Shown here in pieces: positions 1,317 through 61,165 of a DNA stretch of 64,000 nucleotides. Made by a program: the position numbers and the translations under genes. Below the pieces are notes generated by a model. The model was given only the letters and a program-made list of their open reading frames with translations, ran no database searches and was not told where the DNA came from. How positions within the stretch are numbered: the stretch's first letter is position 1; each line of letters opens with the position of its first letter. The stretch is from Promethearchaeota archaeon. Its GTDB lineage: Archaea > Asgardarchaeota > Lokiarchaeia > Sigyniarchaeales > SOKP01. The stretch lies in assembly GCA_019058445.1 (NCBI GenBank), contig JAHPZA010000009.1:64001-128000 (forward strand), written 5' to 3'.

Positions 1317-3572
1317 TTAAAAAATAGGGGTATAGTCGGGTCGCGTTTTATCATATTCATTAAAAATGTTATCAATTTTCTGTAGTATTTGTATTATAGC
1401 ATCCTTAGTTTCTTTATCTTGACCAAATGTATCAACAATCACACTATAGAGATCCACTTGATATTCAGAAGTCAGTTGCGAAATTTTCCTTAAATCCCAC
1501 TGTCTAATTCCGTGCTCTTTTAATTGGATAAATACATTATCTATTTCTTCTTTAAGTTTAAGTGTCGCAGAAAGCGATTTAGTACAATTCTCTAAAAGAT
1601 CTTTTTCTTTTTTAAAAACAATTAACTCCTCGCCATTTAAATCTTCCTTAGCTTCAATATCTTCAATTCGTTCAATTAATAAATACTTTAATCTCTCATA
1701 TATATGAATTGTTTGAGCTATTTTTTCTCTACTTTTTATTAAATCTTGACGATTCAATCTGGCTTCCACAATTTTTAAGTACGCATCTTCATAATAGGTC
1801 TCTAACTCACCGAAGGTACTTTTCTCCCACTCATTAATTTTCTTTCTGATTTGTCGCAGTTGCTCATTTAAAACATCAATTTCTTTCACATTTAGGTTTT
1901 GATTATTTAACTGATTGAAAATTTTATTGGCATCTGATTTTATTAATATAGTTCTTAGTTTAAGGATATGTGCTTTTTTTTCTATATTAGTAATGCTTCT
2001 AGAAACACCCTCTTTTTCACAGATCGTAAAGATGCTAATTGCACTGTCCAATAATTCATTAAATTTATCTTGATTAGATTCAATATAATATTTTGAGTCT
2101 TGAACTTTCTGAATGGCTCTATCCATCTGAATTTCTAATTCGAAAATAAAATCAATCAAATTTACTTGCGTTCTTTCAGATAATATCTTCGATTTATTGA
2201 CCATATCCTCTTCTACAGATTTACTGGCAAGATACCAAAAAACAGCTGCGGGTATCCAGAAAAAGACTGAAAACACCATCATATTGAAAATGCTTCCTAA
2301 CATTGAAATCAACATAAATGAAATTAAAAGAGTAAATCCTTTACCCAATTGCTCCGAAAGGTTGAAAAAAGAGGCAGCAGTTCCTTTATGTTCGGGCATA
2401 TTTACATCTACCATTATTGCATTTTTATTGGCTACTGGGGCAGCTCCTAATGTTGAACCAATTAATGCTACAACAAAATACCATATATAGGAGGGATAAA
2501 CTCTAAATACTGCTTGAATGGTTAAAAAAATATAATGCCATGTTTCTCCTGTCGGGATTGGATCGGGATAATCAATATTTAACTTCGCGACGCTGACGGG
2601 TTCAATAAGAAATAGCATTATTAAACAACAGGGAATTGCAATTATCATACAGACTGTCGCTAATCTCGCGCGGTTTCTTTTATTTCTCTTGTATAATACA
2701 TCACTTAAACGTGAAATGATTACATTACCTAATAAATAGCCAATACCAACCATTCCAGCAAAAATAGTAGCGGTTTGTAGTCTAATTTCTGGAGGTAATT
2801 CAGCAAAATAATATAATGCTAACATTGAAGTTAAGAAATAAATAAGAATTGTTCCAGGGATCACCGTTAAGAACCCTTGGCTAACTAAATGACGGTTTGT
2901 CTTTTTTCGAATGATCTCTGCTAAATCCTCTCTAGAGATACGGTAACTATATTCTAAATTAAATTCAGTCAAATCTAATAGTTCACTTTCACTCGCACCC
3001 CGTTGAGGTATTTTTATAAAGAACAAAATACCTAATATGAAAAAGCTAATTATCGATAAGAGAATAAAAGGAAATCTCCATCCAAAAATTGGACCTATAA
3101 ATGATGACAAGGCTTGTCCTGTTCCGTTCGAGATGGAACTTAAAATTGCTAATGTACCAAACCAACCAGATCTCTCCTCAGGAGGGATGGCATCAGATAT
3201 AATTGAATATCCCACTGGCAAAACACATCCTAACCCGGCCCCACTGAGCATTCTACTTAAAATGAGCATTTCATAAGAAGTACAAAAGGCAGTAAGGAGC
3301 ATTCCAAAAGTCCAACAAAACGCTCCTACCCTGATAACTTTTGTTCTATTTATACGGTCGGTATAATACCCCCATATAATAGCAAAACAGGCGCTAACTA
3401 AAATAAATAATGCATCTGGAATTGCAATTAAAGCAACGGGAATGTCAAATTCTTGCTGAATCGCTGCATAACTTGGGATAAGCATATTCGCACATGCGAT
3501 TGAAACAAATAATAAGAGCACAACTAAGATTATCGGAATTAAATCTTTTGTTTTGACTGTTGTAAGTGGAAT
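1317..3572 (-). CDS. MFS transporter (spinster-like) fused to ~290-aa C-terminal helical domain; probable ATT start
   Basis: MFS motif A (WGYYTDRINR), ~12 hydrophobic segments; frame open upstream of the called GTG 3521 to ATT 3572 (PLTTVKTKDLIPIILVV), preceded by GGTAAT+5 nt. Confidence 0.85.
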   Translation of the reverse strand: MPLTTVKTKDLIPIILVVLLLFVSIACANMLIPSYAAIQQEFDIPVALIAIPDALFILVSACFAIIWGYYTDRINRTKVIRVGAFCWTFGMLLTAFCTSYEMLILSRMLSGAGLGCVLPVGYSIISDAIPPEERSGWFGTLAILSSISNGTGQALSSFIGPIFGWRFPFILLSIISFFILGILFFIKIPQRGASESELLDLTEFNLEYSYRISREDLAEIIRKKTNRHLVSQGFLTVIPGTILIYFLTSMLALYYFAELPPEIRLQTATIFAGMVGIGYLLGNVIISRLSDVLYKRNKRNRARLATVCMIIAIPCCLIMLFLIEPVSVAKLNIDYPDPIPTGETWHYIFLTIQAVFRVYPSYIWYFVVALIGSTLGAAPVANKNAIMVDVNMPEHKGTAASFFNLSEQLGKGFTLLISFMLISMLGSIFNMMVFSVFFWIPAAVFWYLASKSVEEDMVNKSKILSERTQVNLIDFIFELEIQMDRAIQKVQDSKYYIESNQDKFNELLDSAISIFTICEKEGVSRSITNIEKKAHILKLRTILIKSDANKIFNQLNNQNLNVKEIDVLNEQLRQIRKKINEWEKSTFGELETYYEDAYLKIVEARLNRQDLIKSREKIAQTIHIYERLKYLLIERIEDIEAKEDLNGEELIVFKKEKDLLENCTKSLSATLKLKEEIDNVFIQLKEHGIRQWDLRKISQLTSEYQVDLYSVIVDTFGQDKETKDAIIQILQKIDNIFNEYDKTRPDYTPIF

Positions 3573-3712
3573 GTGAGATTACCATTTTAAATTTTGATAA
3601 TTATATTAAATAAGATTAGGACGTTAAAAAATTTTCAGACTTAAAATATTAAGAATCTAATATTTTCGAAATATAACAGTAAGTAAAATAATGATGCATT
3701 AGAGTAAAGTAA

Positions 3713-3816
3713 TGGAGACGGCGGGATTTGAACCCGCGGCCTTTCGCATGCCAAGCGAACGATCTTCCGATTTAATCCTGCACGGAGCTTGTCCGTAGAG
3801 TCTAATCCACGTCCCC
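3713..3816 (-). tRNA. tRNA-Ala(GGC) with 30-nt D-loop intron; CCA not encoded
   Basis: Acceptor GGGGACG/CGTCTCC with G3:U70, discriminator A; anticodon arm TTCGC-TTGGCAT-GCGAA; T arm GCGGG-TTCAAAT-CCCGC; D stem GATT/GATC; spliced length 74 nt. Confidence 0.95.
3772..3801 (-). other. tRNA intron at non-canonical position 15/16
   Basis: ACTCTACGGACAAGCTCCGTGCAGGATTAA; forms a BHB-like motif (central helix GAUU/GAUU, bulges AG|A and AA|A, intron stem CUCUACGGA/UCCGUGCAG). Confidence 0.8.
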
Positions 3817-3939
3817 ATTTTAAAAAGTTTTATTTGAAGACAGTTCTATGTTAAATAGTTATAATCAATTTTTAAAAAAAATTATGGTTTTTACATAAAA
3901 GAAATAAGAAATAAATACAAAATTGAATATTTGAGATCT

Positions 3940-6414
3940 ATGAAAAATCTAAAAAAAAAAGCGAATTCATTTATCCTTATTTTTATCCTTACAAGCAACA
4001 TTCTCACGCCATTTATCGGGATGCCTTTAACTCGGGCTACATATAATAATACTATTCAAATTCAATCAGATTTAATTTCATTCCGAAAAGAAAATGATGT
4101 GGCTTATAATAACAATTGGGAGAAAATGCTTGCCAAATTTGACAAGAATGGAAATGAAGTAGCTGATCAACTTGATAATAAGCTTGAATTATTAGAAATA
4201 TCTTATGATTTTGTAAATTCAGGTCCATCTGAACCAATAGACTTCATCATTCAATTTCCAGATGGTTATGACTATTCAAAAGTGATTGTAATTTTAAAAG
4301 AAAACGGTGGAAATATCAAATATGAGTATAATGCTGCTATTAATGGTTTTGCTGGAAGCATTGAATATAATAGATTAAATGATTTTTGCGAAAAGTTAAA
4401 ACAGAATAAAGTAGATTTTTTAATTGAAGAAGATGCAAAAATCAAAGCGAACTTATATTATGCATCACGTAATTTAAATTTACGACCTTATGTGTGGAAA
4501 ACACTAGATGGGGGTTATACTGGAGATAATACTAGTTCAATAGCAATAATGGATACCGGGATTGATGAATCTCATGAGTTTTTTGATAATTATTCTTTTG
4601 GTGATTTTAGATATAAAATTGTAGGATGGAGAGACTTTACTCCAGGAGGAAATAATGTAACTCTTTATGATGATGTCGGTCATGGGACTCATGTCGCGGG
4701 AATAGCAGCAGGAGTTGGCACTCCAATTAAAGATGGCTCAGATAGATCTATTGCCACTAGTGCTAGCAATGTAGATTATTTTGCTAGCGGAAGTGTAGTA
4801 GATGGTGATGAGTGGTTAGAACCTCTATCAAGGTTTAATGTGCCAACATTAGGTGAGATTGAAGTTGAATGTGGATTTAATGACTCAACACCAGCAATGG
4901 ATTATACAACATCCAAATTTTATATCCTTCGTCTCGAGGGTGATATAGGTTATATATATGCCGAGATTGGTCAAACTTCTCCAGGTGATTGGCAAAATAA
5001 TATGACTTATAATATTGATTCTACTGATAAACTGGGAGATTATGTGATAGTTGCGTTAATCACTTACAACGACGGTCCTGATGGTGATAATGATTGTTCG
5101 AATCCTAACAGTACAGTAAGAGCCGAAGTACATTGGCCATTCAATCCTCCTACATATGGATGTGGAAATCTCTGGAAAGGTGTTGCCCCTGATGCACACC
5201 TTGTGAGTGTGAGAGTACTTGGTAAATCAGGTGGAACAGAATCAGAATTTCTACAAGGTATCGATTGGGTCATTGCTAACAGAACGACCTTAAATATAAC
5301 TGTGATGTCGATGAGTCTTGGATTAGAAAATATCTATGGTCCCGTATCGAGTGCTGCTATGATCAATGCCGTTAATAACGCCGTAGAACTTGGAATAGTG
5401 GCAGTAGCTGCAGCAGGAAATGATGAGTCAGGAGGTAATAATATTGGATCCCCTGGAGATGCCGATAATGCGATTACGGTTGCTGCTATGAATTATGGAG
5501 ATCAAATAACAGATTATAGTAGTCAAGGGGGTTCCGAAAGTTACCAAAATACAACAAAGCCAGATATAACTGCTCCTGGCGGAAGTTTCAATCAATATCA
5601 AATGTTTTCGGCTGATACCAATGACAATGATGCTGAAGGTGCAATTCCTGATGACTATAGCAATGATTTGTATGGTGCCCAAGGCACCTCAATGGCAACT
5701 CCTGTAGTAGCAGGTGCGGCTAATCTTTTAATCCAAGCAATGGGAGGAGGAAACAATTGGGATTGGAATAGTGGAAGTAAATCAAAACTCGTAAAAGCAA
5801 TTTTATTGATGACAGCTACAGAAACATATCCATTAAAAAGAGAAGATGATACAAGTTATAGCCCTTCTCTAAATAGAGGTGGAAAAGATGTTCATGAAGG
5901 GTATGGACGGTTAAATATTGGTGCCGCTATACAAGCTTGGACGAATGACTTAAATGGAAAAAACCTCAGCCCCATCCTTTATTCTTCCATTGAAAATTCT
6001 TTTGCAAACCATTCTTATGCTGGTTATGTAGATTTAAATAAAGACAATACATATCTATTTAATTTAACTGTTCCAGCTGGCAAAGATTACGATTTATATT
6101 TGTATAACTATACATTCAAAGAATGGGGTGAACCTGATTTAATTGCTTCAAGCATATCTGCAATACCAGGACAAGATGAACAAATTAATTTTACCGCTAA
6201 ACATGATGGGAAATATTTCTTGGTTGCTAAAGCAATAGGAATACCTACCCCTGGTGAAGATGATGACGATGATGAAGATAAGGAAATTGTAATAGATTTA
6301 ACGTTATTTCTCATAATAAGTGCTATAGTTGCCTTGATTGGTATAATTATACTTATAAAGGTTTATAAGAAAAGTAGAGAAGATGATAACTACGAATACT
6401 ACCCAGAATACTAA
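3940..6414 (+). CDS. membrane-anchored S8 (subtilisin-like) serine peptidase with inserted domain and PPC-like C-terminal domain
   Basis: Signal peptide; IMDTGID (Asp), HGTHVAG (His), AAGN (oxyanion), GTSMATP (Ser); acidic linker, C-terminal TM helix and short tail. Confidence 0.93.
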   Translation: MKNLKKKANSFILIFILTSNILTPFIGMPLTRATYNNTIQIQSDLISFRKENDVAYNNNWEKMLAKFDKNGNEVADQLDNKLELLEISYDFVNSGPSEPIDFIIQFPDGYDYSKVIVILKENGGNIKYEYNAAINGFAGSIEYNRLNDFCEKLKQNKVDFLIEEDAKIKANLYYASRNLNLRPYVWKTLDGGYTGDNTSSIAIMDTGIDESHEFFDNYSFGDFRYKIVGWRDFTPGGNNVTLYDDVGHGTHVAGIAAGVGTPIKDGSDRSIATSASNVDYFASGSVVDGDEWLEPLSRFNVPTLGEIEVECGFNDSTPAMDYTTSKFYILRLEGDIGYIYAEIGQTSPGDWQNNMTYNIDSTDKLGDYVIVALITYNDGPDGDNDCSNPNSTVRAEVHWPFNPPTYGCGNLWKGVAPDAHLVSVRVLGKSGGTESEFLQGIDWVIANRTTLNITVMSMSLGLENIYGPVSSAAMINAVNNAVELGIVAVAAAGNDESGGNNIGSPGDADNAITVAAMNYGDQITDYSSQGGSESYQNTTKPDITAPGGSFNQYQMFSADTNDNDAEGAIPDDYSNDLYGAQGTSMATPVVAGAANLLIQAMGGGNNWDWNSGSKSKLVKAILLMTATETYPLKREDDTSYSPSLNRGGKDVHEGYGRLNIGAAIQAWTNDLNGKNLSPILYSSIENSFANHSYAGYVDLNKDNTYLFNLTVPAGKDYDLYLYNYTFKEWGEPDLIASSISAIPGQDEQINFTAKHDGKYFLVAKAIGIPTPGEDDDDDEDKEIVIDLTLFLIISAIVALIGIIILIKVYKKSREDDNYEYYPEY

Positions 6415-6451
6415 TCTTCAATTTTATTCTTTTTTTTTCTAATATTAATAT

Positions 6452-7162
6452 TTATTTCGTAATAATTAGGACTGTACCATCTTCTTTTCCTATGTATGCT
6501 TTAGAGGTCATCCCAATAAAGAACCCCGTATCCACTACACCCGGAATTTTAAGAATTTTCTCATTTAGTTCAGAAGGGTGTTTAACAATCCCAAAATTCA
6601 CATCAATAATAAAGTTTCCATTATCCGTTACTAAAGGACCCGCCTTTGCTTGAGCCATTCTTAAAACTGGTTGACCCCCTAAAGACTCAAGTTTCTTCAT
6701 GATAGGAACATAAGCCATGGGAATTACTTCAATAGGAACTCCTTTCTTCCAATTTTCACCAAGATATTTCGAATTTTTCCTGTAATCTGCAATAATGACT
6801 AATTTCTTTGAGTTTGATGCGATAATTTTTTCTTGTACTAAGCAACCTCCCCCTCCTTTAATTAAATTAAGTTCCTTGTCAATTTCATCTGCCCCATCAA
6901 TATCCAAATCAATTTCAGGGTATTGATCTAACGATACTAGATTCAATCCATTTTCCACAAGTAATTGATAGGATTGAAAAGAAGTGGGAATACATTTTAA
7001 ATTTAAATGATCACCCTTATTTTTTTCAGCTATTTTTTGTACAGCATAGACAACAGTAGAACCACTGCCAATGCCTAAAATCATGTCCTTTTTAACATTT
7101 TCTTCCACGGCTTTTTCTGCAGCAGTTCTTTTTCCTAATTCAATTAAATTTTCATTCATCAT
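6452..7162 (-). CDS. rpiA: ribose-5-phosphate isomerase A
   Basis: GIGSGST, IDGADE, KGGGG, VTDNGN motifs. Confidence 0.96.
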   Translation of the reverse strand: MMNENLIELGKRTAAEKAVEENVKKDMILGIGSGSTVVYAVQKIAEKNKGDHLNLKCIPTSFQSYQLLVENGLNLVSLDQYPEIDLDIDGADEIDKELNLIKGGGGCLVQEKIIASNSKKLVIIADYRKNSKYLGENWKKGVPIEVIPMAYVPIMKKLESLGGQPVLRMAQAKAGPLVTDNGNFIIDVNFGIVKHPSELNEKILKIPGVVDTGFFIGMTSKAYIGKEDGTVLIITK

Positions 7163-7179
7163 AATTCTATTTAATTTTA

Positions 7180-7599
7180 TTATTTTAATAGATTAAGAAT
7201 TCGAATAGCAAGATAAGCAGCGTTTTCACCGCGATCAATTCCAACACATGCCACAGGAACTTTAGGAGGCATTTGAACAATCGATAATAATGCATCTAAT
7301 CCTCCTAATTTAGAATCCACAGGAACTCCAATAACAGGCCTCTCTGTTTTTGATGCAACAACTCCTGGTAAAGCTGCTGACAATCCAGCAACTGTAATAT
7401 AAATTAAAGATTCACAAGAATTAATATATTCGTCCAATTTATCAGGATCACGGTGTGCAGATATAATTTGTAAGTCATATGGAATATTATTTTCTATCAG
7501 GACATTTTCAGCTTTCACATACACTTCCTTATCGCTTTTGCTACCTGCTATTATTGAAATTAAAGGCTTCTCATCTCTGTCTTTGTTTGAAATTGACAT
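7180..7599 (-). CDS. purE: PurE (N5-CAIR mutase / AIR carboxylase family)
   Basis: [30 protein letters not shown] motifs. Confidence 0.93.
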
Positions 7600-7803
7600 A
7601 ATTAAACTAAATTTTCGAAAAATAAAAAGAATTCTAGTCGTTTTTTAACAATTTTTAAAAAAAAATACTTAAGTAAAAAATACGAATTATTATTTTCAGA
7701 TATCCATTCATCAAAAACTTTAATATTTTTTGAAGACTTCATCACTTACTTACTAATACTAAATATTTAACAATAAACATAAACTAAAAAGTGATTATTA
7801 AAA

Positions 7804-9090
7804 ATGGTAGAATTAAACGAAGTATGGTTAATTGATTATGCGAGAACTGCCTTTTCTCGCTCAAGACCAAAGCAACCTGAAAGAGACGTGTTTGGAGAGA
7901 TAAGGAGCGATGAGTTAACTGCTACATTATTGATGAAATTTTTTGATCAGAAATTAGCTGATAAGGGAATTGAGAAAAAAGACGTTGATGAATTTACTAT
8001 TGGAACTGCTATGGGAGTTTGGGAGAATTGGACTTATGGAGGAAGATTACCACTTTTCTTAGCGGAGTTTCCCGTTGAAGTGCCTGCTTTGTTTGTAGAC
8101 AGACAATGTGGATCAGCAGGTAGTGGAATGCATGTTGCAATCATGGAAATCATGACTGGAATGAGTAAATGTTGTCTTTCGGCGGGAGTGGAGCATATGA
8201 CTCGGGTTTCTATGCAGAACAACCATATCAATCCTAATCTGGGAATGGTTAACAAAAAGGATAAATGGTATAGACCCCAGTATGATATAATGACGACAAT
8301 CAATATGCTTCAAACTGCGCAAAAGCTTTACGAGCAAGAAGTTCCTGCGTTTACTAAAGAAGATCTAGATAAGTTTGGAGTACGAGCCCACAATTTAACT
8401 GTAGAAAATACTGAAAAAGGATGGTTTAAGGGTGAAATTATTCCAATAGAAGGACATGCTGAAGGAAATATTGAAGAAACAATGATGATTGATAGAGACA
8501 TGGCAGCGAGAAGATCTACATTAGAAAAGGTTTCAACATTACCTCGATTATCGAAACCTTATTATTTAGAAAAGAATGGTGGCAGAAAAGGTTATGTTGA
8601 GAGAGAAGGAACTAAAGATGGCGTAATCACCCCGGGAAATTCTTCACCTCTTAATGCGGGAGCTACTGCAGCGCTATTAATGGAAGCTAAGGAGGCTGAA
8701 AAGAGAGGGCTCGAACCAATGGCCAAAATTGTTTCTATTGGTTGGGCAGGAGTTGATCCATCAGTAATGGGTCGAGGACCTGTCCCTGCAACAGAAATGG
8801 CTTTAAAACATGCTGGTTTAACCGCTGACGATATCGATTATTGGGAGATTAATGAAGCTTTCTGCATCGTGGCATTAAACTGTATGAAACATTTCAATAT
8901 TCCTGAAGAAAAGGCTAATGTCATGGGAGGTTCAACTGCTATTGGGCATCCTCTTGGTGCTACAATGATTCGATTACCAGGTACGCTTGCACGAATCTTA
9001 AGAGACAAAAAAGCGAAATATGGTTGTGCAAATGCCTGTTGCGGAGGAGGCCAAGGAGTAGCAACAATTATAGAAAATCCTGATGCCTAA
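7804..9090 (+). CDS. acetyl-CoA C-acyltransferase (thiolase)
   Basis: RQCGS active-site Cys, NEAF, GHPLGA, CCGGG; SD GTGAT upstream. Confidence 0.95.
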   Translation: MVELNEVWLIDYARTAFSRSRPKQPERDVFGEIRSDELTATLLMKFFDQKLADKGIEKKDVDEFTIGTAMGVWENWTYGGRLPLFLAEFPVEVPALFVDRQCGSAGSGMHVAIMEIMTGMSKCCLSAGVEHMTRVSMQNNHINPNLGMVNKKDKWYRPQYDIMTTINMLQTAQKLYEQEVPAFTKEDLDKFGVRAHNLTVENTEKGWFKGEIIPIEGHAEGNIEETMMIDRDMAARRSTLEKVSTLPRLSKPYYLEKNGGRKGYVEREGTKDGVITPGNSSPLNAGATAALLMEAKEAEKRGLEPMAKIVSIGWAGVDPSVMGRGPVPATEMALKHAGLTADDIDYWEINEAFCIVALNCMKHFNIPEEKANVMGGSTAIGHPLGATMIRLPGTLARILRDKKAKYGCANACCGGGQGVATIIENPDA

Positions 9091-9136
9091 AATTACATCT
9101 AGATAGTCCTAGATTAACAAATAATTATAATCCCTA

Positions 9137-10493: not shown

Positions 10494-10537
10494 TCTATTT
10501 CATGAATTTAGTAATCAAACAAGAAAATAAATAAGAA

Positions 10538-21465: not shown

Positions 21466-22191
21466 CTAATTTTTTTTAGATATTCGTTTTTCTATCCATT
21501 CTGGCAAATAAAATCCCCAATAGAACTCTATAGTACTAGTTAAGACTAATAATCTCATTATGACTACCGTGGCGATATGAATCGGTAATATAGCATCTAC
21601 GAGACCACCTACCGCATAGGTTAAGAATGCTAAAATAAGCAATTTTCCTTTTAGCTTATTTTCAGGCTTTTCTGACCTTAGAGACTCTCGAGCAAATAGA
21701 ATTCCCGTCATTTCAAGAATAACTATTAAAAAGAGAATATAAAAAAGAACAAAACTTTTATATTCTACATTGACAGGCCCAGTTAATTCTCCGATTTGAG
21801 AAGGATCAGCAAATAGAAAATAGAAGAAAATGGATTCAAAAATAACAGCTGTAATGGAAAATAATAAAAGAATCATTTTCTGCTTGTCTTTATATAAAAA
21901 CTCCGTAAATGCGGTTAACCACACAATCATAAAGAATGGAAGTAAAGAAATTCCAAGGATAAAATAAAGTTCAGGATTAAGTGGTGCGCCTGTTGTTAGA
22001 ACCAATATAAAGGAGACACTAGATGGATACCACGGAGTAACTACTCCAATCCATGTGACTCCCACAAGTACGAATGTTTTTTGCCTATATTCAAAATATT
22101 TTGAAGCTATTTTTAATCCTACAATTATTGAGATAATAACAATAATGATACTAAACAAGCCAGATATAAACTCAACCGTTGATAATTCCAT
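21466..22191 (-). CDS. stand-alone 7-TM membrane protein (paralog of 60461-61165)
   Basis: Seven hydrophobic segments; shares SKYF, DPS.I, LKGK, EFY.GF.LP with the paralog. Confidence 0.85.
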   Translation of the reverse strand: MELSTVEFISGLFSIIIVIISIIVGLKIASKYFEYRQKTFVLVGVTWIGVVTPWYPSSVSFILVLTTGAPLNPELYFILGISLLPFFMIVWLTAFTEFLYKDKQKMILLLFSITAVIFESIFFYFLFADPSQIGELTGPVNVEYKSFVLFYILFLIVILEMTGILFARESLRSEKPENKLKGKLLILAFLTYAVGGLVDAILPIHIATVVIMRLLVLTSTIEFYWGFYLPEWIEKRISKKN

Positions 22192-36636: not shown

Positions 36637-36763
36637 GAGAGATTTTCCTCATTATTTTGAAATATAAATATTTACTTATCAAAAATTAAGAGTTTAATAT
36701 ATATAGCTTAATTAACTCTAATCATTAAGAGTATTATATAAAGGATTAAGAGAGGTATTTTCA

Positions 36764-37225
36764 CTGTCATATTTTCAGAAAATAAACAACGCAGAGCTAT
36801 GGAAAAAAATCCAAAAACTCAGAGAATACATCAAGATTTTAAATGAGCATAAACAATTCAAACAAAGAACTTGTTGGGCATGTAATAAGAGTCTAAATAT
36901 ATTCGATTTCCTTTCTGATAATTTAGAGTTTACTCCGGAATACATATTAAAATTATGGCAAACTCCTATTATAGAGTTACACTGCTGCGAATGTTTTAAG
37001 AATCTGAAATTACACGAGCTCTCATTAATTAAAAATATGGGTTTGGAGACTCGAAATTGTCATAACTGTGGAAGTTCTATGGATATTTATAGATTCTCTA
37101 AGATTTACAATTTCCTTAAAATAAAGGAGCTAAAAGAGATATGGTTAAATGAAAATGCTCTAATATTCTGTAGCGGATATTGTGAAAAGTATTATTATAA
37201 AATAAAAAAAAGAAAAAAAAATTAG
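36764..37225 (+). CDS. 153-aa tandem double Zn-finger protein, probable CTG start (track calls only the last 62 aa)
   Basis: Frame open from stop at 36719; repeat 1 RTCWAC...LKLW...LHCCECF, repeat 2 RNCHNC...KEIW...IFCSGYC; SD GAGGTATT+4 nt+CTG. Confidence 0.85.
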   Translation: MSYFQKINNAELWKKIQKLREYIKILNEHKQFKQRTCWACNKSLNIFDFLSDNLEFTPEYILKLWQTPIIELHCCECFKNLKLHELSLIKNMGLETRNCHNCGSSMDIYRFSKIYNFLKIKELKEIWLNENALIFCSGYCEKYYYKIKKRKKN

Positions 37226-41728: not shown

Positions 41729-42736
41729 ATGATGAAAATAGAAGCTATTGAAGTAAAGAATTTATCTAAACATTTCTTTCCGTCAATGAAGGAGAGAAAA
41801 AGAATAAGAATGCAACAAGAAGGATCAGAAAAAGGTACTAAGAATAACATAATTCAAGCTGTTAACAACATCAACTTCAGTGTAAAACAGGGTGAAATTT
41901 TCGGTTTTTTGGGTCCAAATGGTGCTGGAAAGACGACGACCATTCGGATGTTAACTGGAGTGCTCAAGCCTACTAATGGGAGTATTTCTATTTATGGGGG
42001 AAACATTTGGAAACATCCAATTGAGGTGAAACAAATATTAGGACATGTTCCTGAGGAGGCAAATGTCTATATGGATCTTACAGGAATGCAAAATCTATAT
42101 CTAATTGGCAAACTTTATGGACTTTCGAAAAGCGAACGTGTTAATCGAGCTGAACAATTATTAAAACAGTTTGAATTGTTCGAAAAAGGGAATTTAAAAG
42201 CCAAGAAATATTCCAAGGGAATGAAACAAAGATTATTGCTATGTATGGCGCTTATGAGTAATCCCAAAATTTTATTTCTTGATGAGCCAACATCGGGTTT
42301 AGATGTTAAATCAAGTAGAATAATCAAGAAATTGATAAAAGAATATAATGAGAATGGAATGACCATTTTTATAACGACTCATGACATGGATGTAGCAAAT
42401 GAACTGTGTCATCGAATTGCCATTATTAATCAAGGAAAAATTATTAGTCTGGATACTCCCGATAATCTTAAAAAATTGACTCAAGAATATCTGGCTATCG
42501 ACTGTCATTTTATTGATACTGTCAATGTGAATGAAATTAAAGAATTGCATAGCATAATTGAAGTCCAACAAAACAATAGCCTATATCATATAATTGTGAA
42601 AGATATCAATGTGGCATTAATCGAACTCGTAGATTTTATCAAAACCAATGATTTGAATGTGAAGCAAGTATCTACAAATGAACCAAAATTAGAGGATGCA
42701 TTTTTAAAAATAATAGAAAGAGGTGTTGAGAATTAG
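41729..42736 (+). CDS. ABC-2 exporter ATP-binding subunit (DrrA-like), copy 1
   Basis: GPNGAGKT, YSKGMKQR, LFLDEPT, TTH. Confidence 0.95.
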   Translation: MMKIEAIEVKNLSKHFFPSMKERKRIRMQQEGSEKGTKNNIIQAVNNINFSVKQGEIFGFLGPNGAGKTTTIRMLTGVLKPTNGSISIYGGNIWKHPIEVKQILGHVPEEANVYMDLTGMQNLYLIGKLYGLSKSERVNRAEQLLKQFELFEKGNLKAKKYSKGMKQRLLLCMALMSNPKILFLDEPTSGLDVKSSRIIKKLIKEYNENGMTIFITTHDMDVANELCHRIAIINQGKIISLDTPDNLKKLTQEYLAIDCHFIDTVNVNEIKELHSIIEVQQNNSLYHIIVKDINVALIELVDFIKTNDLNVKQVSTNEPKLEDAFLKIIERGVEN

Positions 42737-43520
42737 TAAAGAAGTATTTGGTGTAAAAGGCTCAAAAAAATTAGGCTTAACTGTCCAATTAAGAAGGGCA
42801 GCTGCAATTGCTCAAAAAGATTTAAGGATTTACTATAATAAACCCCCGGTAATAGTTCAAGGTATAATTTTTCCAGTAATACTTTTTTTTACATTCACGA
42901 TCGGAAGAAAGATCCCTACGCCGCTATTAATCTCAGGATTAATGGCAATGGTAATTTTCTTAACTGCCACATCTATAGGTCCATTTGTTTTTCCATGGGA
43001 AACTATGCGAAAAACATTTGAACGTTTAATTACTTGCCCAGTTTCAGTAAAAACAATATTATTTGGGAGTATGTTAAGTTCCTTCTTATTTGGAGTTATT
43101 TTTTCTCTGGTGCCTCTCGTCTTAGGGATAATATTTTTTTCACTCCAGATAACTATAAATTTCCTTATAATACTTATAGCCATGTTTCTCGCAGCTTTTG
43201 TGTTTTCAAGTTTCAGCCTTATTTTATCTGCCCCGCCCACGGATATGCCTGGAAATATCATGATTTTTACACTTCTTCTAAAGTTTACAATATTATTCTT
43301 AAGTCCGCTGTTTATGCCAATAAGAGATCACCCTCTAGCATGGATTTCTCCACTTACATATTTCGTAGATATCGTGAACGTTAGTTTGGGACTTGAAAGT
43401 GCTTTCGGACATTACGGAATTCTTATCGATTTTGCAATTCTAAGCTTTTTCGGAGTTTTCTTTTTATTTCTGGCTTTTATGTTGCATAAAAAAACGCTAC
43501 AGAAGAGATTTCGAAATTAA
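42723..43520 (+). CDS. ABC-2 permease, copy 1 (start uncertain: GTG 42723 or ATT 42732)
   Basis: 6 TMs, ERLITCP, SPLTY. Confidence 0.9.
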   Translation: MLRISKEVFGVKGSKKLGLTVQLRRAAAIAQKDLRIYYNKPPVIVQGIIFPVILFFTFTIGRKIPTPLLISGLMAMVIFLTATSIGPFVFPWETMRKTFERLITCPVSVKTILFGSMLSSFLFGVIFSLVPLVLGIIFFSLQITINFLIILIAMFLAAFVFSSFSLILSAPPTDMPGNIMIFTLLLKFTILFLSPLFMPIRDHPLAWISPLTYFVDIVNVSLGLESAFGHYGILIDFAILSFFGVFFLFLAFMLHKKTLQKRFRN

Positions 43521-47103: not shown

Positions 47104-47145
47104 GGTTTTTTTAATAATTAAAAATTGAGAATTTGGTGATCTTAA

Positions 47146-47925
47146 ATTTTCAAGCAAAAGACTGCACAAAAAGTTGATTACGGAAATTGGGTGCCTAAGA
47201 ATCTATTAGGATTTCTATTATTATTGTCTATAATTCCGGCATTGATTACGCTATTTCCTTTGATATTAATAATAGAGATAATTTTATGGGTTCTTGCTGG
47301 CTTATTTTTTTTATTATTTCTTTTCATACTTTATGTTTATTTTGTTTTTGCTAAAAATGATAATAAACTACAAAATCTTTTGTGGGATATCGTTTTGGAA
47401 AAATTATCTTGGAAAGGAAATGGGAAAGTTATTGATATTGGAACTGGAGCTGGAGCAATTGCTATAAAATTAGCGAAAAGATTTCCTAACTCTGAAGTAT
47501 GGGGGGTTGATAATTGGGGAAAGGGATGGAATTATTCTAAAAATTTATGTGAGAAAAATGCCAGCATAGAAGGAGTATCAGATAATGCTATTTTTCAAAA
47601 AGCTAGTGCGTCTAATCTTCCTTTTAAAGACAATGAATTTGACGCGATTGTTAGTAATTTTGTATATCATGAAGTGGGCGATGTTAAGGAGAAAACAGAT
47701 GCAATTGAGGAATCCTTAAGAATTCTTAAAAAGGATGGTAAATTTGCGCTTCAGGATTTGTTTTTACATGAAAAAAAATTTGGTAAATTTAAAAATTTGA
47801 CTAGTAAATTTAAAGAATGGGGCGTAAGAGAAATTAATTCATTTAACCCTTTAGTTGAAATTAAAATGAATTGGATTTTACGCCTTATGTTTAGAAATAG
47901 CTTAATATTATATGGTAAAAAATAA
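47146..47925 (+). CDS. membrane-anchored class I SAM methyltransferase; probable ATT start
   Basis: IDIGTGAG, GVDNW, LPF..NEFD.IVSN.VYHEV; frame extends upstream through DYGNW to ATT 47146 behind GGTGAT+5 nt. Confidence 0.88.
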   Translation: MFKQKTAQKVDYGNWVPKNLLGFLLLLSIIPALITLFPLILIIEIILWVLAGLFFLLFLFILYVYFVFAKNDNKLQNLLWDIVLEKLSWKGNGKVIDIGTGAGAIAIKLAKRFPNSEVWGVDNWGKGWNYSKNLCEKNASIEGVSDNAIFQKASASNLPFKDNEFDAIVSNFVYHEVGDVKEKTDAIEESLRILKKDGKFALQDLFLHEKKFGKFKNLTSKFKEWGVREINSFNPLVEIKMNWILRLMFRNSLILYGKK

Positions 47926-55882: not shown

Positions 55883-56012
55883 AGAATTGTATTAATGATT
55901 AAAAAAAGTTAAATAATCTAAGATAAAGTAATACTATCAATTATGAAAAAATTCTAATAAAAAAATAGGAAAAGTTATTCTGTTAGAATTTGAATAAAAG
56001 AAGTGACAATAA

Positions 56013-58280
56013 ATGGATAAAGAAGAACCGTTTAAGGGTTTAATCAGGCGCACCTATGATAAGTCAATCCCATGGTGGCCTGATCCAAAGTGGTCAGAAA
56101 AAGATAAGCCGAATGTAGTGATTATCCTCTTAGATGATACAGGTTTCGCTCATTTAGGTTGCTATGGTTCTAGCATCGAGACCCCAAATATTGATCGATT
56201 AGCTGAAGGAGGCTTACGTTACACAAATTTCCATACAACTGCTTTATGTTCACCGACGCGAGCGTGTTTACTAACTGGTCGTAATCACCATACCGTTGGT
56301 ATGAGAGCAATTGCTAATTTTGATTCCGGCTTTCCTCATATGAGGGGATACATTACACCTCACGCAGCTACTATTGCAGAAATTTTGAGTGAAGAAGGAT
56401 ACGCAACCTTTGCTGTGGGTAAGTGGCATCTTACTCCAATGATGGAGGCATCACCTGCCGGACCATTTGACAATTGGCCTCTTCAGCGGGGCTTCAATCG
56501 CTTCTATGGTTTTATGCAGGGTGAGACAGACCAGTTTTATCCTGAGCTGACCTGTGATAATCATCCAATCGACCCTCCCTATAGTCCCGAAGAGGGATAT
56601 CATATTAGTGAGGATCTTGTTGATCAAGCAATGGCACTCATCCGTGACCAGAAGTCAATATATCCCAATCAACCTTTTTTCCTTTATTTAGCATTCGGTG
56701 CGACTCATGCACCACACCAAGCCCCACGTAAATTTATTGAGAAGTATCGTGGTCGTTTTGATGCAGGTTGGGATGCTACTCGCGAGGAATGGTATCAAAG
56801 GCAGCTTGAGATGGGCATCATACCGTCCGGCACTAAATTAGCTCCTCGGAATAAAGGTGTTCGTGCCTGGGATAGATTGTCCGAGAACCAGAAAAAATTC
56901 GCACTATGTTTGCAGGAAGTTTTTGCTGGCTTTTTAGATCACACGGACCAACAGATTGGGAGATTAACTTCTTTTCTGGAGCAGCTAGGTGAACTTGATA
57001 ACACAATTTTAATTTTACTTTCAGATAATGGAGCTAGTCAGGAGGGAAGCTCCACTGGGGTCATGGATGAGTTTAAGTTCTTTAATGGAGTGATGGAAGA
57101 TATTAATGCCATCCAAGATCGTCTTGACGAGATTGGTGGACCGCACAGCCATTCTAATATTCCTTGGGGTTGGGCACAAGTAGGAAACACCCCGCTTAAG
57201 TGGTATAAACAAAATACTTTCGGGGGAGGAGTTCGTGATCCACTAATCATCCATTGGCCAAAACGGATACGAGATCGAGGAGGAATCCGTAACCAGTTCC
57301 ATTTTGTCTCCGACATTGTACCTACTATTCTTGAGGTTCTTGATATCGAACCTCCCTCGAATTATAAAGGGATTTATCAGATCCCCATTTCCGGTACATC
57401 AATGGTTTATACTTTTGATAGCCCAAACGTAGCCACTCAGAAAAATGTACAATATTTTGAGATGTTTGGTCATAGAGGTATTTGGATCGATGGCTGGAAA
57501 GCGGTTACTTATCATACAAAAGGAGAACCCTATAAGGATGAAGAGTGGGAACTATATCACTTGGATGAGGACTTTTCGGAATGTAATAATCTAGCATCTG
57601 AAAATCCTAAAAAATTGCGTGAGTTAATTGATTTATGGTGGATAGAAGCTGGGCGGTATGGCGTTCTTCCGCTTGATGATAGAAATATTGAGCTTTTTAG
57701 AGCTGTATTTCGACCAGGAACGCCTCATGCTACACGTAACTATACCTATCATCCCCCAATTAGCCATTTACCCGCAGAAGTTGCACCAGCACTCGGAAAT
57801 CGCACGTGGGTGATGACCACTGAGATAGAGCGCCCAAATAACAGTACTGAGGGAGTTTTAGTTGCTCAAGGCACTCAAAATGGAGGATACAGTTGGTATA
57901 TTAAGGATAATCAATTGGTATTTGATTATAATGTGTTTACAGAACATCATGTGGTACATTCCGATCAGAGTGTGCCCACTGGGAAATGTACGCTTGGAGT
58001 GAAATTTGTAAGAGAAGGGAGAACTGGCACAATTATCCTTTCAATGGATGGTAAGGAGTGTGGTTCAATCTCAGTTCCATATATTTTACGAATGATTTCG
58101 TCAACAGGATTAGATATCGGAAGAGATGGGCTCTCTCCAGTCACTAATGATTATAAAGCACCATTCAAATTTACCGGTACAATTAAAAGAGTCCATATAG
58201 AGCTGCCTCGCTACAGACCGCCTTCAGAAGAGCGTGAGGATAAGGAGGTTAGATATCGTACTGAGATGTCTAAACAATAA
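56013..58280 (+). CDS. arylsulfatase (Cys-type formylglycine sulfatase)
   Basis: PNVVIILLDD, CSPTR (CxPxR), GKWHL, SDNG, WYK. Confidence 0.95.
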   Translation: MDKEEPFKGLIRRTYDKSIPWWPDPKWSEKDKPNVVIILLDDTGFAHLGCYGSSIETPNIDRLAEGGLRYTNFHTTALCSPTRACLLTGRNHHTVGMRAIANFDSGFPHMRGYITPHAATIAEILSEEGYATFAVGKWHLTPMMEASPAGPFDNWPLQRGFNRFYGFMQGETDQFYPELTCDNHPIDPPYSPEEGYHISEDLVDQAMALIRDQKSIYPNQPFFLYLAFGATHAPHQAPRKFIEKYRGRFDAGWDATREEWYQRQLEMGIIPSGTKLAPRNKGVRAWDRLSENQKKFALCLQEVFAGFLDHTDQQIGRLTSFLEQLGELDNTILILLSDNGASQEGSSTGVMDEFKFFNGVMEDINAIQDRLDEIGGPHSHSNIPWGWAQVGNTPLKWYKQNTFGGGVRDPLIIHWPKRIRDRGGIRNQFHFVSDIVPTILEVLDIEPPSNYKGIYQIPISGTSMVYTFDSPNVATQKNVQYFEMFGHRGIWIDGWKAVTYHTKGEPYKDEEWELYHLDEDFSECNNLASENPKKLRELIDLWWIEAGRYGVLPLDDRNIELFRAVFRPGTPHATRNYTYHPPISHLPAEVAPALGNRTWVMTTEIERPNNSTEGVLVAQGTQNGGYSWYIKDNQLVFDYNVFTEHHVVHSDQSVPTGKCTLGVKFVREGRTGTIILSMDGKECGSISVPYILRMISSTGLDIGRDGLSPVTNDYKAPFKFTGTIKRVHIELPRYRPPSEEREDKEVRYRTEMSKQ

Positions 58281-58433
58281 TTACCATTTAAAAATTTAGA
58301 TCTCTATTTTTTTCTTATTTTAATAAATATCTAATTTAAAATGATTTTAAATACAATCATACTCTTATTTAAAAAGGAAATTTACTATTTGATATTATAG
58401 TATACCTTTTTTCAATTAGAAAAGGCGATTCTC

Positions 58434-59408
58434 ATCCCCGAAAGTAGCAGTATATTAAATGATATAAATAAGGTATTCATTCCATGCAGGACCGTGCTAG
58501 AAATGGAAGCAATAATTTCTCTCTATTTATTAAATTCTAATTATGATAGAATTAAAGAAATTCCAGAGTCTCGACCTTCTAGTGATCGGCTTGTTGACAT
58601 ATTAGGTGTTAGAGATCAAAGACTTTTTGTAGATATTATAGATTATTTTATCAATCGAGCAATCCCGAAAGTAAAACCCGTAGTTATGTATGCTCGTGAA
58701 CATCATGAAAGGTATAGAATGGGAAACGTTGCTCCTTACGCAAAAACGCGAGTATGTGTTTATCTCGCACTACATAGATTAAAATTGAAATTTTTAATTA
58801 TTAAAAATTTTTTAGATAAATTCAAATCGGCGAATAACAGCTTAGAATTTGTTTCTGATGAGGAAGCGGAAGAGGATATGACTTTTCTGACCACCTTAGC
58901 CAAGGATTATTATAAAAAAAATAAAATGAATCTGAGACTCATGATTCAGAAGAGAAGAGTTTCAGAAAGAGTTCAAAAATTACTAAATGATAAAGATGCT
59001 ATCACCAGCGACAAATTATTTAAAATGGCAACATTCAAGGTATATCTTGAAAGAGCTAATATAATAAAATTTATTATGCGAGAAATCAAAGCTTCAATTT
59101 TTGTTTGTAGATTAATGTTTGCCAAAATGGACCTTCATAATCCTTTTTCTTTTACAGAAGAAACTGCTTTGGATTTAGAAGAAATTATGATTAGTAATGA
59201 CTTTATTCCTGAGTTATTACCTGCCATATCAAAAGGTTTACAGGATAATAATATATCCCAACTTGAAGATTGTATTAACGCATTTGAATTTTTTATGGAT
59301 AAGGTTTTAAATGGTATTAATAAAGCTATAGAAATAACTTCTGGGGGACAACTCCAAATTGGGTTATACGATGCGATTTATGATATTGGCAATATTTTTG
59401 CATTTTAG
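58434..59408 (+). CDS. hypothetical helical protein; start ATC 58434 (tentative), GTG 58494 or ATG 58503
   Basis: Long ORF; frame open from stop at 58398; AAGGCGAT+4 nt+ATC CCC GAA. Confidence 0.75.
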   Translation: MPESSSILNDINKVFIPCRTVLEMEAIISLYLLNSNYDRIKEIPESRPSSDRLVDILGVRDQRLFVDIIDYFINRAIPKVKPVVMYAREHHERYRMGNVAPYAKTRVCVYLALHRLKLKFLIIKNFLDKFKSANNSLEFVSDEEAEEDMTFLTTLAKDYYKKNKMNLRLMIQKRRVSERVQKLLNDKDAITSDKLFKMATFKVYLERANIIKFIMREIKASIFVCRLMFAKMDLHNPFSFTEETALDLEEIMISNDFIPELLPAISKGLQDNNISQLEDCINAFEFFMDKVLNGINKAIEITSGGQLQIGLYDAIYDIGNIFAF

Positions 59409-59509
59409 CAAGATTCTTTAGATTAAAAATTTCATTTTAAATTCCCACTAAAGAAATATATTAAAATAAAAAAATATCATAGTTAATATTATAATTAAAA
59501 AGTATTTTT

Positions 59510-60211
59510 ATGGCTAATTATAAAGCAATTGTTAAAGATCTACAAAAAAAATACACTGATGCAACTGAGGTAGTTATCGTAAGCAAAGATGGAAAAGTCC
59601 TTTTTACAACTGATAACTGGGATGTTAATCGTGATATAAAGGGTGTATTATCCAATTGGGCAAGTGGCAATGCACAATTCGTATCTATAAATGAGATTCG
59701 GTATTCTATCCTACAGATGGAGCCAGAACGGTTTATTGCTACAAATCGTCATAAAAAGGGGCATTTGATAGGCGCAACCACACCAGATGGATCTATATGT
59801 ATTTTGGCTCATATTAAACCAAAAGCAAAAGCTTGGTATCATTCTGCCTATCCATTTGTCGCTAGAGCCGCCGCGATGATGGTAAAAGGTTCAAAATCAA
59901 AGAATTTAAAATCTAAGAAGAGTAAAAAAAGACAAAAGACCAAGAAGCAAAAAAAGGAAACAAAAGTAGTGCTAATGGATGATAAGAAGGAAAAATTGAA
60001 TACGTATGAAACCACGTATGGTGTATTAAAAGAGGAACCTCAGATTGATCCCTATCTTAAATTAGAAATTGAAAATTTTCTCCAGTGGATAAACGATCCT
60101 AATGGTTTATCATCTTATATCTCTTATTATTTAGGTCAGAATGATCATCAGAAAATTCATGCTTTGGCCATGATTTATAAAATGCTCCATAGAATATTTT
60201 CAAATGAATAA
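59510..60211 (+). CDS. Asgard profilin-domain protein with Lys-rich linker and C-terminal helical domain
   Basis: VIVSKDGKVLFTTDNWDV, INEIRYSILQMEPERFIATN..KGHL resemble Loki profilins from memory; extra ~105 aa. Confidence 0.85.
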   Translation: MANYKAIVKDLQKKYTDATEVVIVSKDGKVLFTTDNWDVNRDIKGVLSNWASGNAQFVSINEIRYSILQMEPERFIATNRHKKGHLIGATTPDGSICILAHIKPKAKAWYHSAYPFVARAAAMMVKGSKSKNLKSKKSKKRQKTKKQKKETKVVLMDDKKEKLNTYETTYGVLKEEPQIDPYLKLEIENFLQWINDPNGLSSYISYYLGQNDHQKIHALAMIYKMLHRIFSNE

Positions 60212-60216
60212 TTTGA

Positions 60217-60318
60217 TTGAATGGCATTATTAAAACTAAAGAAATAAGTTCTGGTGGACAAATACAAATCGGATTATATGATACCATATATGGTACTGGA
60301 AACATTTTTGCGTTTTAA
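60217..60318 (+). pseudogene. remnant copy of the last 34 codons of the 58434-59408 gene
   Basis: LNGIIKTKEISSGGQIQIGLYDTIYGTGNIFAF* vs LNGINKAIEITSGGQLQIGLYDAIYDIGNIFAF*; 81/102 nt identical by hand count. Confidence 0.85.
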
Positions 60319-60460
60319 CTAAGTTGTATCAAAAAAAGAAAACAATACTAACTAATCTTTAAATATAAAATAGGATCTATATTTCTACTAAAGCATTTAG
60401 AAATTTACATCTAAATTAAAATAATAAAGGATTGATTATACTATTTCTGAGGTTCTTCCA

Positions 60461-61165
60461 ATAATTCCTATTGATATTGTATTTACAATAATCTTTACAT
60501 TAATATCTCTAATTTTAGGGATAATTATGATCCTAAAATATTTTAAATATAAAATTAAAGAACTAATTTTTGCCGGGATAACATGGTGTATTATTACAAG
60601 CCCTTTTTGGGCAGATATTATCTCTTATTTGTGGTACCTAACATTTAACACACACCTAAGCGATTTGCTTTATTTTTTGCTCTGCATCGGATTTATCCCA
60701 TTAGCACATATAACATGGATGATCTTTTTTACTTCTTTCTTTCTCCAAAAATATCAGAAAGGAATTATCTCAATATTTTTGATTGAAGCAATTATATTCG
60801 AGATAGTGTTTATATATTTCCTTATAGTAGATCCTTCGAAAATTGCTACAAGAATACCATTAACTAGCGTTGTGTGGACACCATTCATTATAATTTATTT
60901 GCTTCTTTCCATAGTGCTTTTTCTACTTACTGGCCTTGCTTTTACCCTAAAAAGCTTTAAGTCAGATAAAGAGGATACCCGATTAAAAGGTAAATTTCTT
61001 CTTATCGCATTTATTTCTTTCATAATAGGTGTCATCATTGAAATAATTCCTATTTTCTTTGAATTTAAATACGTACTTAGTAGATTAATTATTCTCACAG
61101 CTGCAATAGAATTTTATATCGGATTTATCTTACCGAGTCAGATAAAAAAAGTTTTATTAAAATAA
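60461..61165 (+). CDS. 7-TM membrane protein (paralog of 21466-22191); probable ATA/ATT start
   Basis: TM1 (IPIDIVFTIIFTLISLILGII) is encoded upstream of the called ATG 60527; GAGGTT+6 nt+ATA. Confidence 0.85.
   Translation: MIPIDIVFTIIFTLISLILGIIMILKYFKYKIKELIFAGITWCIITSPFWADIISYLWYLTFNTHLSDLLYFLLCIGFIPLAHITWMIFFTSFFLQKYQKGIISIFLIEAIIFEIVFIYFLIVDPSKIATRIPLTSVVWTPFIIIYLLLSIVLFLLTGLAFTLKSFKSDKEDTRLKGKFLLIAFISFIIGVIIEIIPIFFEFKYVLSRLIILTAAIEFYIGFILPSQIKKVLLK

Follow-up and report, generated by a model that had tools for sequence, protein, structure and literature searches.

Where does translation begin in genes whose recognisable coding sequence extends well upstream of their first ATG, GTG or TTG codon? 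This question is raised by a stretch of 64,000 nucleotides (nt; hereafter the window) of the draft genome of a Promethearchaeota archaeon of the class Lokiarchaeia (assembly GCA_019058445.1, contig JAHPZA010000009.1, positions 64,001 to 128,000 of the forward strand). An earlier note, made from the letters of the window alone, had proposed that genes of this lineage recurrently start at near-cognate codons placed behind Shine-Dalgarno (SD) motifs. Here, ATG, GTG and TTG are called canonical starts, ATT, ATA, ATC and CTG are called near-cognate, and site positions are window coordinates. The source genome is denoted G000, the window being G000:C9:64001-128000, and the relatives used for comparison carry similar handles. 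Based on sequence comparisons, we propose with a probability of roughly 0.84 that six genes of the window, together with a genome-wide set, start translation at AUU, AUA, AUC or CUG. The six genes are as follows.

1317..3572, minus strand: site 1, MFS-type transporter with a long C-terminal coiled region; proposed start ATT 3572-3570
36764..37225, plus strand: site 2, small protein with two CxxC...CxxC zinc-finger-like repeats; proposed start CTG 36764
42732..43520, plus strand: ABC-2 type permease; likely start ATT 42732, 6 nt after GAGGTG 42720-42725
47146..47925, plus strand: site 3, membrane-anchored methyltransferase; proposed start ATT 47146
58434..59408, plus strand: conserved protein, function unassigned; proposed start ATC 58434
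60464..61165, plus strand: site 4, seven-transmembrane protein; proposed start ATT 60464, alternatively ATA 60461

All six genes possess, 3' of an in-frame stop, a stretch that is devoid of ATG, GTG and TTG and encodes recognisable protein. The earlier note had described this for four main sites and had listed the permease and the ATC 58434 gene as weaker cases; the codons lie where it had placed them, and the description proved correct for the weaker cases as well. At site 1, TAA 3581-3579 lies two codons before the ATT. The first canonical start, GTG 3521, is 17 codons past the ATT and 19 past the stop, and initiation there would remove part of the first transmembrane segment (TM1). The stop-to-stop frame of site 2 spans positions 36722-37225, with its first canonical start, ATG 37038, at codon 105; starting there would eliminate the first repeat. 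Given the per-codon frequencies of stops (0.091) and canonical starts (0.034) in intergenic DNA, which we used as a chance baseline, the probability of such a 105-codon gap is ~1e-6. At site 3, TAA 47143-47145 abuts the ATT, and a start at GTG 47191, the first canonical one, would cost the protein its DYGNW motif. The frame of site 4 is open from 60428, and its first canonical codon, ATG 60527, falls within TM1. For the gene with ATC 58434, the first canonical start is GTG 58494 (codon 31). The permease gene is translationally coupled to the upstream ABC ATPase gene, which ends with TAG 42734-42736.

The 3' end of the 16S rRNA of G000 is GGATCACCT, with an SD-pairing part ...GGAUCACCU..., and the aligned SD spacing of unambiguous canonical starts in this genome peaks at 6 nt, with a range of 3-10 nt. 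Exact SD 5- to 7-mers are found at canonical spacing at sites 2, 3 and 4 and before ATT 42732. Thus, GAGGT(A) 36752-36757 is 6 nt from the CTG of site 2, GGTGATC 47135-47141 is 4 nt from the ATT of site 3 (5 nt when counted from GGTGAT), and GAGGT 60449-60453 precedes site 4. The six canonical starts that the earlier note had taken as controls (9324, 32856, 41530, 48556, 53731 and 61191) do follow GGTGA- or GAGGT-type motifs, at 4-10 nt. The TTG codons that it had listed as frequent starts (10493, 11982, 13612, 17502, 21172, 48556 and 54650) do open long open reading frames (ORFs); TTG represents 20% of the first canonical starts genome-wide and about 18% of SD-led starts.

One could argue that initiation takes place at the first downstream ATG, GTG or TTG and that the upstream stretch is conserved as a regulatory RNA or DNA element. 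Such elements might exist, as the upstream similarity of genes g2677 and g3512 is T-rich and promoter-like, and a short N-terminal truncation might be tolerated at site 3. However, the upstream stretches encode TM1 in the MFS and seven-transmembrane proteins, a whole zinc-finger repeat at site 2 and, as described below, the zinc knuckle of initiation factor aIF1, whose genes in G018 and G022 have no canonical start in frame at all. Furthermore, the amino acid sequences are conserved at overall identities of 30-60%, where non-coding DNA is not alignable, and the stretches display third-position bias and full coding potential. We consider this alternative very unlikely. In the case of g2677, the 15 in-frame codons before ATG 7599 (window 7600-7644, minus strand) show 8 of 14 residues similar in G009, with the T-rich sequence AGA ATT NTT TTT ATT T. 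Neither g2677 nor g3512 was counted as a near-cognate start, since their upstream regions look like conserved promoter or leader DNA.

The alignment of orthologs, which the earlier note had suggested as a check, places canonical starts or other near-cognate codons at the ATT, ATC and CTG codons of the window. The N-terminal sequence (I)PLTxxxKKDL(I/V)PI of the MFS transporter is conserved in about 12 genomes. The codon homologous to ATT 3572 is ATT or ATC in 10 genomes of the family with readable starts and ATG in G014, while G011 has a GTG three codons upstream. TAA is found immediately 5' of the ATC in G005 and G001. In other families, G032 reads AGGTGA-N6-ATC CCG and G026, which belongs to a third family, has an ATG start nearby. 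Between G000 and G002, the 17 codons carry five substitutions, all of them synonymous and at third positions. An intron-containing tRNA-Pro (CGG) gene was called by aragorn just upstream of the MFS start region (window 3712-3817, minus strand).

For site 2, 12 orthologs are alignable across the full stop-to-stop frame. The codon at the position of CTG 36764 is TTG in six genomes, ATG in G022, CTG in G002, ATT in G023 and ATA in G024; G011 has a GTG three codons upstream, and the GAGGT motif is kept upstream within the genus. The G024 ortholog carries an in-frame TAA in place of the CAG (Gln) codon of the KIQKLRE motif present in all others, and conservation extends over the remaining frame. 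The TAA may reflect pseudogenization, an error or read-through.

Before the permease gene, an SD motif followed by ATT at the codon equivalent to 42732, with a spacing of 4-7 nt, is found in seven of eight homologs. G012 has ATG at the same codon behind the same SD. In the G009 homolog, which reads GGGGGG ATA ATA ATT AGT, canonical starts are absent over 51 codons. In the case of ATC 58434, G010, G011 and G012 have ATG at the exact codon (MPES..., ATG CCT GA(A/G) AG(T/C), to be compared with ATC CCC GAA AGT in G000), G002 has ATC, and G003 and G008 have ATT. In-frame stops are found five to six codons upstream in G002 and G003, and the motif NDINKVFIPCRT located 5' of GTG 58494 is conserved out to G032. 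Canonical codons thus occur in orthologs at the exact positions of CTG 36764, ATC 58434, ATT 42732 and ATT 3572, and in several species in-frame stops precede the near-cognate codon by 0-6 codons.

At site 3, G003 has the same TAA-ATT arrangement behind GGTGATC. In G008, G009 and G004, the start is an ATG located four codons downstream. The equivalent codon is AAG in G000 and AAA in G003, which indicates that an older ATG was lost in the sub-lineage of G000 and G003. The DYGNW motif is conserved as far as another family (EYGNW in G029). The protein of site 4 belongs to a paralog family, 19 members of which are alignable upstream of ATG 60527; the ATG of these paralogs lies ~15 residues before the FTLIF motif. 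G003 similarly lacks a canonical start before TM1. It keeps ATT 60464 and has CCA for ATA 60461, which, together with the substitution pattern described below, makes the ATT the better candidate. This family has about 32 matches in G000, 39 in G003 and 47 in G008, including two in the window (60428-61165 and 21466-22191, the latter on the minus strand), and it is confined to this Lokiarchaeia family and one genome of a neighbouring family.

These codons could also be assembly or sequencing errors, or recently inactivated ATG or TTG starts. G000 is a draft genome in 10 contigs with 92.6% completeness and 4.3% contamination, at least two of its genes (eS26 and g127, see below) are interrupted, and the zinc-finger ortholog of G024 contains the in-frame TAA mentioned above. 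However, the same codons are present in independent assemblies from different studies, namely in 10 genomes of the family and in G032 for the MFS gene and in about 40 for aIF1. The downstream frames are intact, and since the appearance of the near-cognate codons their changes have been mostly synonymous, with a strong bias towards third positions. Essential genes are affected as well (aIF1, and eS26 in G001). The earlier note had named sequencing error or pseudogenization as an outcome that would overturn its proposal, and the conservation across independent assemblies contradicts such an outcome. Altogether, we find this explanation extremely improbable.

The pattern of substitutions gives an indication of where coding begins. 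Substitution counts are given as numbers at codon positions 1/2/3. For the 91 codons that separate the CTG from the ATG at site 2, they are 13/5/28 relative to G003 (27 synonymous and 13 non-synonymous codon changes) and 13/6/34 relative to G002, in contrast with a flat 6/4/5 relative to G002 over the 14 in-frame codons that precede the CTG. For site 4, the comparison with G003 gives 1/1/6 after ATT 60464 and 5/4/3 before it. The coding-type pattern thus begins at the near-cognate codon at both sites. Pooling the four main sites, with one closest relative each, yields 15/6/41 (p=1.1e-7).

These data also bear on the possibility that ribosomes start at an out-of-frame canonical codon and enter the gene frame by +1 ribosomal frameshifting or transcriptional slippage. 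An out-of-frame canonical triplet, always in the -1 frame, is present near each of the four main sites: ATG 3585 (minus strand), GTG 47136 and TTG 60433 upstream of sites 1, 3 and 4, respectively, and ATG 36800, which is followed by a run of seven A, downstream of the proposed start of site 2. Nevertheless, GTG 47136 is part of the SD motif GGTGA, the upstream GTG of the MFS gene in G005 and G001 is in a different frame and runs straight into TAA, and the site 2 orthologs have an in-frame TTG or ATG at the position of the CTG, 5' of the A-run. We found no shared slippery motif, and the out-of-frame triplets are conserved neither in frame nor in position across orthologs. As coding-type substitutions begin at the near-cognate codon itself, frameshifting is hardly credible.

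We then return to initiation at near-cognate codons and to its frequency in the genome. The assembly of G000 has a size of 4.6 Mb and ~30% GC. We considered genes of at least 80 codons, called with a simple codon-usage model, which gave 57 genes in the window and 3973 genome-wide. Based on the intergenic frequencies, the first canonical start should be preceded by 60 codons or more in about 1.4 ORFs, and this was observed in 38. Raw genome-wide counts of GGTGA-N-ATA arrangements relative to controls are unusable, because coding sequence swamps the signal, and ATG itself is only 1.6-2.1-fold enriched. Upstream of the first canonical start, ATA and ATT occur in frame 61 and 60 times, respectively, at 4-8 nt past an SD 5-mer, and the control codons AAT, TTA, TAT and TTT occur 26, 16, 18 and 30 times. 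This enrichment (121 vs 90, odds ratio 2.7, p=3e-12) has a spacing peak of 6 nt, like that of ATG. ATA and ATT account for about 17% of SD-led starts, vs about 4.6% of all genes.

We identified 86 genes with an SD motif and a near-cognate codon at least eight codons before any canonical start (39 ATA, 38 ATT, 6 ATC and 3 CTG). The 2879 intervening codons have a mean codon log-likelihood of 0.251±0.010, compared with 0.260±0.006 for the first 20 codons of SD-led canonical genes and 0.099±0.020 for in-frame non-coding controls. An all-vs-all paralog search found alignments of at least eight residues upstream of the first canonical start for 139 of 2115 genes with paralogs, an upper bound as some of these genes are fragments. 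In one TFB paralog, ATA follows GAGGT, with ten supporting paralogs.

We also compared G000 with 400 kb of the same-genus genome G009, which yielded 218 reciprocal best hits with a median identity of 62%, and inspected the alignments. Ten of the 218 G000 genes qualify (4.6%, confidence interval 2.2-8.3%), and in the reverse direction seven G009 genes do so (3.2%). Exact pairs of aligned start codons include ATA with GTG, ATT with ATG (twice), CTG with GTG and ATC with ATG for the near-cognate codons of G000, and ATA with ATG (twice), ATT with ATG and ATC with ATG for those of G009. At least 10 exact near-cognate/canonical pairs are found elsewhere in the genome, beyond the window sites. Since seven of the 10 G000 cases are canonical in G009, the start state must turn over rapidly. 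An SD 5-mer is present at six of the 12 near-cognate starts fixed by a canonical start in the ortholog, vs 448 of 3969 (11%) first canonical starts (p=0.001). In the window itself, the recount gives six of 57 genes (10.5%), in agreement with the estimate of about four to six in ~60 that had been made initially; this value is borderline high with respect to the 4.6% estimated genome-wide (P about 0.05).

Near-cognate starts are also predicted beyond the genus, for further genera of the same family and for two or more genes of G032, a member of another family. For the latter, we analysed 780 kb at a median identity of 34%, where N-termini are seldom alignable, and the ortholog test gave one or two credible near-cognate cases in addition to the MFS gene. 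The ribosomal protein gene eS26 has an ATT start in G001 and an ATG start in G000 and G032. Roughly 2-5% of the G000 genes, i.e. about 80-200, are likely to have near-cognate starts, and the rate may differ between lineages. On these grounds, putative near-cognate starts are a regular feature of this Lokiarchaeial family and not a single-gene oddity, and the predicted start codon quickly interchanges between ATG, TTG or GTG and ATT, ATA, ATC or CTG among species. Some near-cognate codons have been kept for long, in the MFS transporter across two families and in aIF1 across about 40 genomes.

As to how such starts might be read, the initiator Met-tRNA would pair with AUU, AUA, AUC or CUG with one mismatch. 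In about half of the cases, pairing between the SD motif and the 16S rRNA, 4-9 nt upstream, would hold the ribosome over the codon. AT-biased mutation, which turns ATG into ATA or ATT, probably feeds the pool of near-cognate codons. Alternatively, the initiator tRNA or its modification might have changed so as to pair with AUA and AUU, for instance by partial C34 modification as in mitochondria, with no need for SD anchoring and tolerant factors. AUA and AUU make up 77 of the 86 SD-led candidates, and about half of the ortholog-defined cases are devoid of a strong SD. Nevertheless, CUG starts are predicted as well, at site 2 and in g2449, and these imply a mismatch at the first position. We regard a changed initiator tRNA as very improbable, and one-mismatch reading by an ordinary initiator as the better account.

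Several points weigh against near-cognate initiation or limit its reach. The initiator tRNA was not found in G000: no candidate with a CAU anticodon fits the GGG-CUNNNRN-CCC anticodon stem, and no GGGCUCAUAACCC stem-loop was detected, but the tools recover few tRNAs in this genome (23 with aragorn and 16 with RF00005) because its tRNA genes are intron-rich and most escape standard tools, which leaves some room for an altered initiator. The claim of the earlier note that start selection is driven by SD motifs stands in part. SD 5-mers are enriched, as described above, but about half of the ortholog-defined cases have none, so SD pairing is not the whole story, and several SD motifs are weak. 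At sites 1 and 58434, only one-mismatch motifs are found, TGGTAA (3584-3579) and GGCGAT (58424-58429), the latter 4 nt before the ATC and one base off GGTGAT. For the permease, GTG 42723 and TTG 42726, located in or beside the SD motif GAGGTG two to three codons before ATT 42732, are possible alternative starts. The arrangement at ATT 47146 is common to two close genomes only and is the least constrained of the six. In G032, the SD-linked enrichment is weak and not significant (18 vs about 12.5 expected). Finally, our frequency estimates depend on our own, crude gene calling, and that ribosomes initiate with Met at these codons, as well as the efficiency with which they might do so, is what we infer from the gene sequences.

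The earlier note had considered start selection to be relaxed in this lineage, possibly owing to altered fidelity of aIF1, aIF1A or aIF2, and had suggested inspecting aIF1. Relaxed fidelity would be one possible cause of near-cognate starts, and a feedback loop that involves aIF1 another. The gene for aIF1, a SUI1 protein that acts as a start-codon fidelity factor, deserves particular attention. In G000 (C10, about 8794-9120), it reads AGGTTGTGA AAC TAC AAA ATT AAA GAT ... ICPLC, with a TGA directly before AAC. No ATG, GTG or TTG precedes the N-terminal zinc knuckle, and the first canonical codon is a GTG at codon 20, within the knuckle. Of the 22 genomes of the family, 20 have ATT or ATC at a fixed distance of 9 nt after the conserved AGGTTGTGA (GTGA), and the G018 and G022 genes harbour no canonical codon anywhere in frame. 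In other families, aIF1 begins with ATG, GTG or TTG, save for one genus with ATA (two genomes). A scan with one genome per species found ATT or ATC in 21 further Promethearchaeota metagenome-assembled genomes (MAGs), and in 49 of 50 other archaea the gene has a canonical start. In the G014 aIF1 locus (L127), a minimal ATG TAG unit is found just before the ATT, and in the G001 eS26 locus (L251:1143-1148), an out-of-frame ATG TAA precedes the ATT; such units may be regulatory or occur by chance.

The ATT or ATC start of aIF1 suggests negative feedback of the infC type, by analogy with other initiation factors. Bacterial IF3 (infC, with AUU or AUA) is autoregulated via its own weak start. According to work cited in PMC6237735, this also applies to eukaryotic eIF1 (with AUG in a poor context; Ivanov 2010), and aIF1 of S. 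solfataricus discriminates against non-canonical starts. Here also, aIF1 has a weak start that is conserved in the lineage. Unlike in those systems, however, AUU is not unique to aIF1 in G000. The AUU start of aIF1 might form a negative feedback loop that sets the tolerance of initiation. That Lokiarchaeia would keep their start stringency deliberately low by means of such a loop, with aIF1 translated from AUU, is a tentative idea that we consider rather doubtful. In G032, aIF1 starts at TTG, yet near-cognate starts are present, and therefore an AUU-started aIF1 is no precondition for them. The aIF1 proteins of G000, G002, G003 and G008 score 44-49 bits against the SUI1 model, vs 52-70 bits in most relatives. 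In this clade, KKKCASGGTV is changed to KKKLGSGGVV and LQGDH to VRGDH; fidelity is not readable from these residues.

Other irregular genes were found along the way. The eS26 gene of G000 lies outside the window (G000:C6:441700-442010, minus strand; locus L049:1684-1712). It starts at ATG and codes for MPKKRKSGGK...CSKCGRFVA, is then interrupted by ~29 nt (AGAGTGTTTAACATTTCGTATTCACTGTA), and continues in another frame as KSKAKAVTRR...YYCISCAVH. The matches in G007 and G008 are interrupted too, and most other relatives have a continuous gene. We favour a small intron or a genuine split of the gene over an assembly error, although the predicted fold shows no convincing bulge-helix-bulge motif (z = -1.0). 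On the same contig upstream of the window, the THWDREWYLTF motif of g127 (G000:C9:~6900-6990) is interrupted by ~27 nt (ACTTTATAATATTGAGATGTAAAGCAC), with the same frame on both sides and in-frame TAA and TGA codons; the motif of the G009 ortholog is uninterrupted. After eS26, g127 is the second protein gene in which we suspect a mini-intron or an insertion. A last observation concerns gene h186 of the G009:C6 sample and G000:C1:27020-27126. The HdrA-like h186 carries an in-frame TGA at a codon that specifies Cys in G000 (VCR*GINIAG vs VCHCGINIAG). This TGA probably codes for selenocysteine; a tRNA-SeC was called by aragorn in G000.

If stringency is indeed kept low by such an aIF1 loop, AUU, AUA, AUC and CUG would be ordinary, tunable starts for several per cent of the proteome, including aIF1 and, in some species, eS26 and TFB paralogs, and present Asgard protein catalogues would be systematically truncated at the N-terminus. 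As the earlier note had anticipated, gene finders limited to ATG, GTG and TTG would truncate or miss such proteins, the first canonical codon being 8-105 codons downstream. About 2-5% of the proteins of the lineage would be affected, including six of 57 in the window, with losses of transmembrane helices, zinc fingers and the zinc knuckle of aIF1. Asgard proteomes are mined for eukaryote-like proteins, and missing N-termini lead to distorted structure predictions and expression constructs. Furthermore, archaeal initiation combines eukaryote-type factors with bacteria-like SD-containing mRNAs. Dense use of near-cognate codons, together with an AUU-started aIF1, would provide a testable handle on stringency in the archaea closest to eukaryotes.

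In the literature that we could search, we found no paper on near-cognate starts as a general pattern in Asgard archaea, only a single-gene case, and the statement of the earlier note that this density had not been described is correct within those bounds. NCBI translation table 11 lists ATT, ATC, ATA and CTG as starts. A 2026 review describes SD motifs as rare in Lokiarchaea (PMC12993045). The single-gene case is AtubA, from a MAG of the Kariarchaeaceae, a Heimdall-type Asgard family, for which a 'rare ATT start codon' with a plausible ribosome-binding site was inferred (PMC13394414). As in the genes described here, annotation had truncated an Asgard protein, and a conserved N-terminal strand was restored via an upstream ATT behind a ribosome-binding site. 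In contrast with our set, that report concerns one gene from a different Asgard class, treated as a rarity, with no frequency, comparative or genome-wide analysis.

In bacteria, near-cognate starts have been described for infC and pcnB of E. coli (AUU) and, behind extended SD motifs, for infC (AUA), cvfC1 (AUU), ccpN (AUA) and citZ (AUA) of S. aureus, where they support about 10% of the efficiency of AUG (PMC13009471). These systems share with G000 the same codons, SD motifs at functional spacing, conservation in orthologs and truncation by gene finders. All S. aureus sites have strong extended SDs, and many in G000 do likewise (GAGGTGA, AGGTGAT, GGAGGTG). Nevertheless, G000 is an archaeon with a eukaryotic-type initiation apparatus of aIF1, aIF1A and aIF2. 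Housekeeping genes are included in its set, and turnover between species is rapid, with seven of 10 cases not shared with a same-genus relative. With roughly 80-200 genes (2-5%) in G000, compared with two known in E. coli and four mapped in S. aureus, the predicted density of near-cognate starts is well above anything documented in bacteria.

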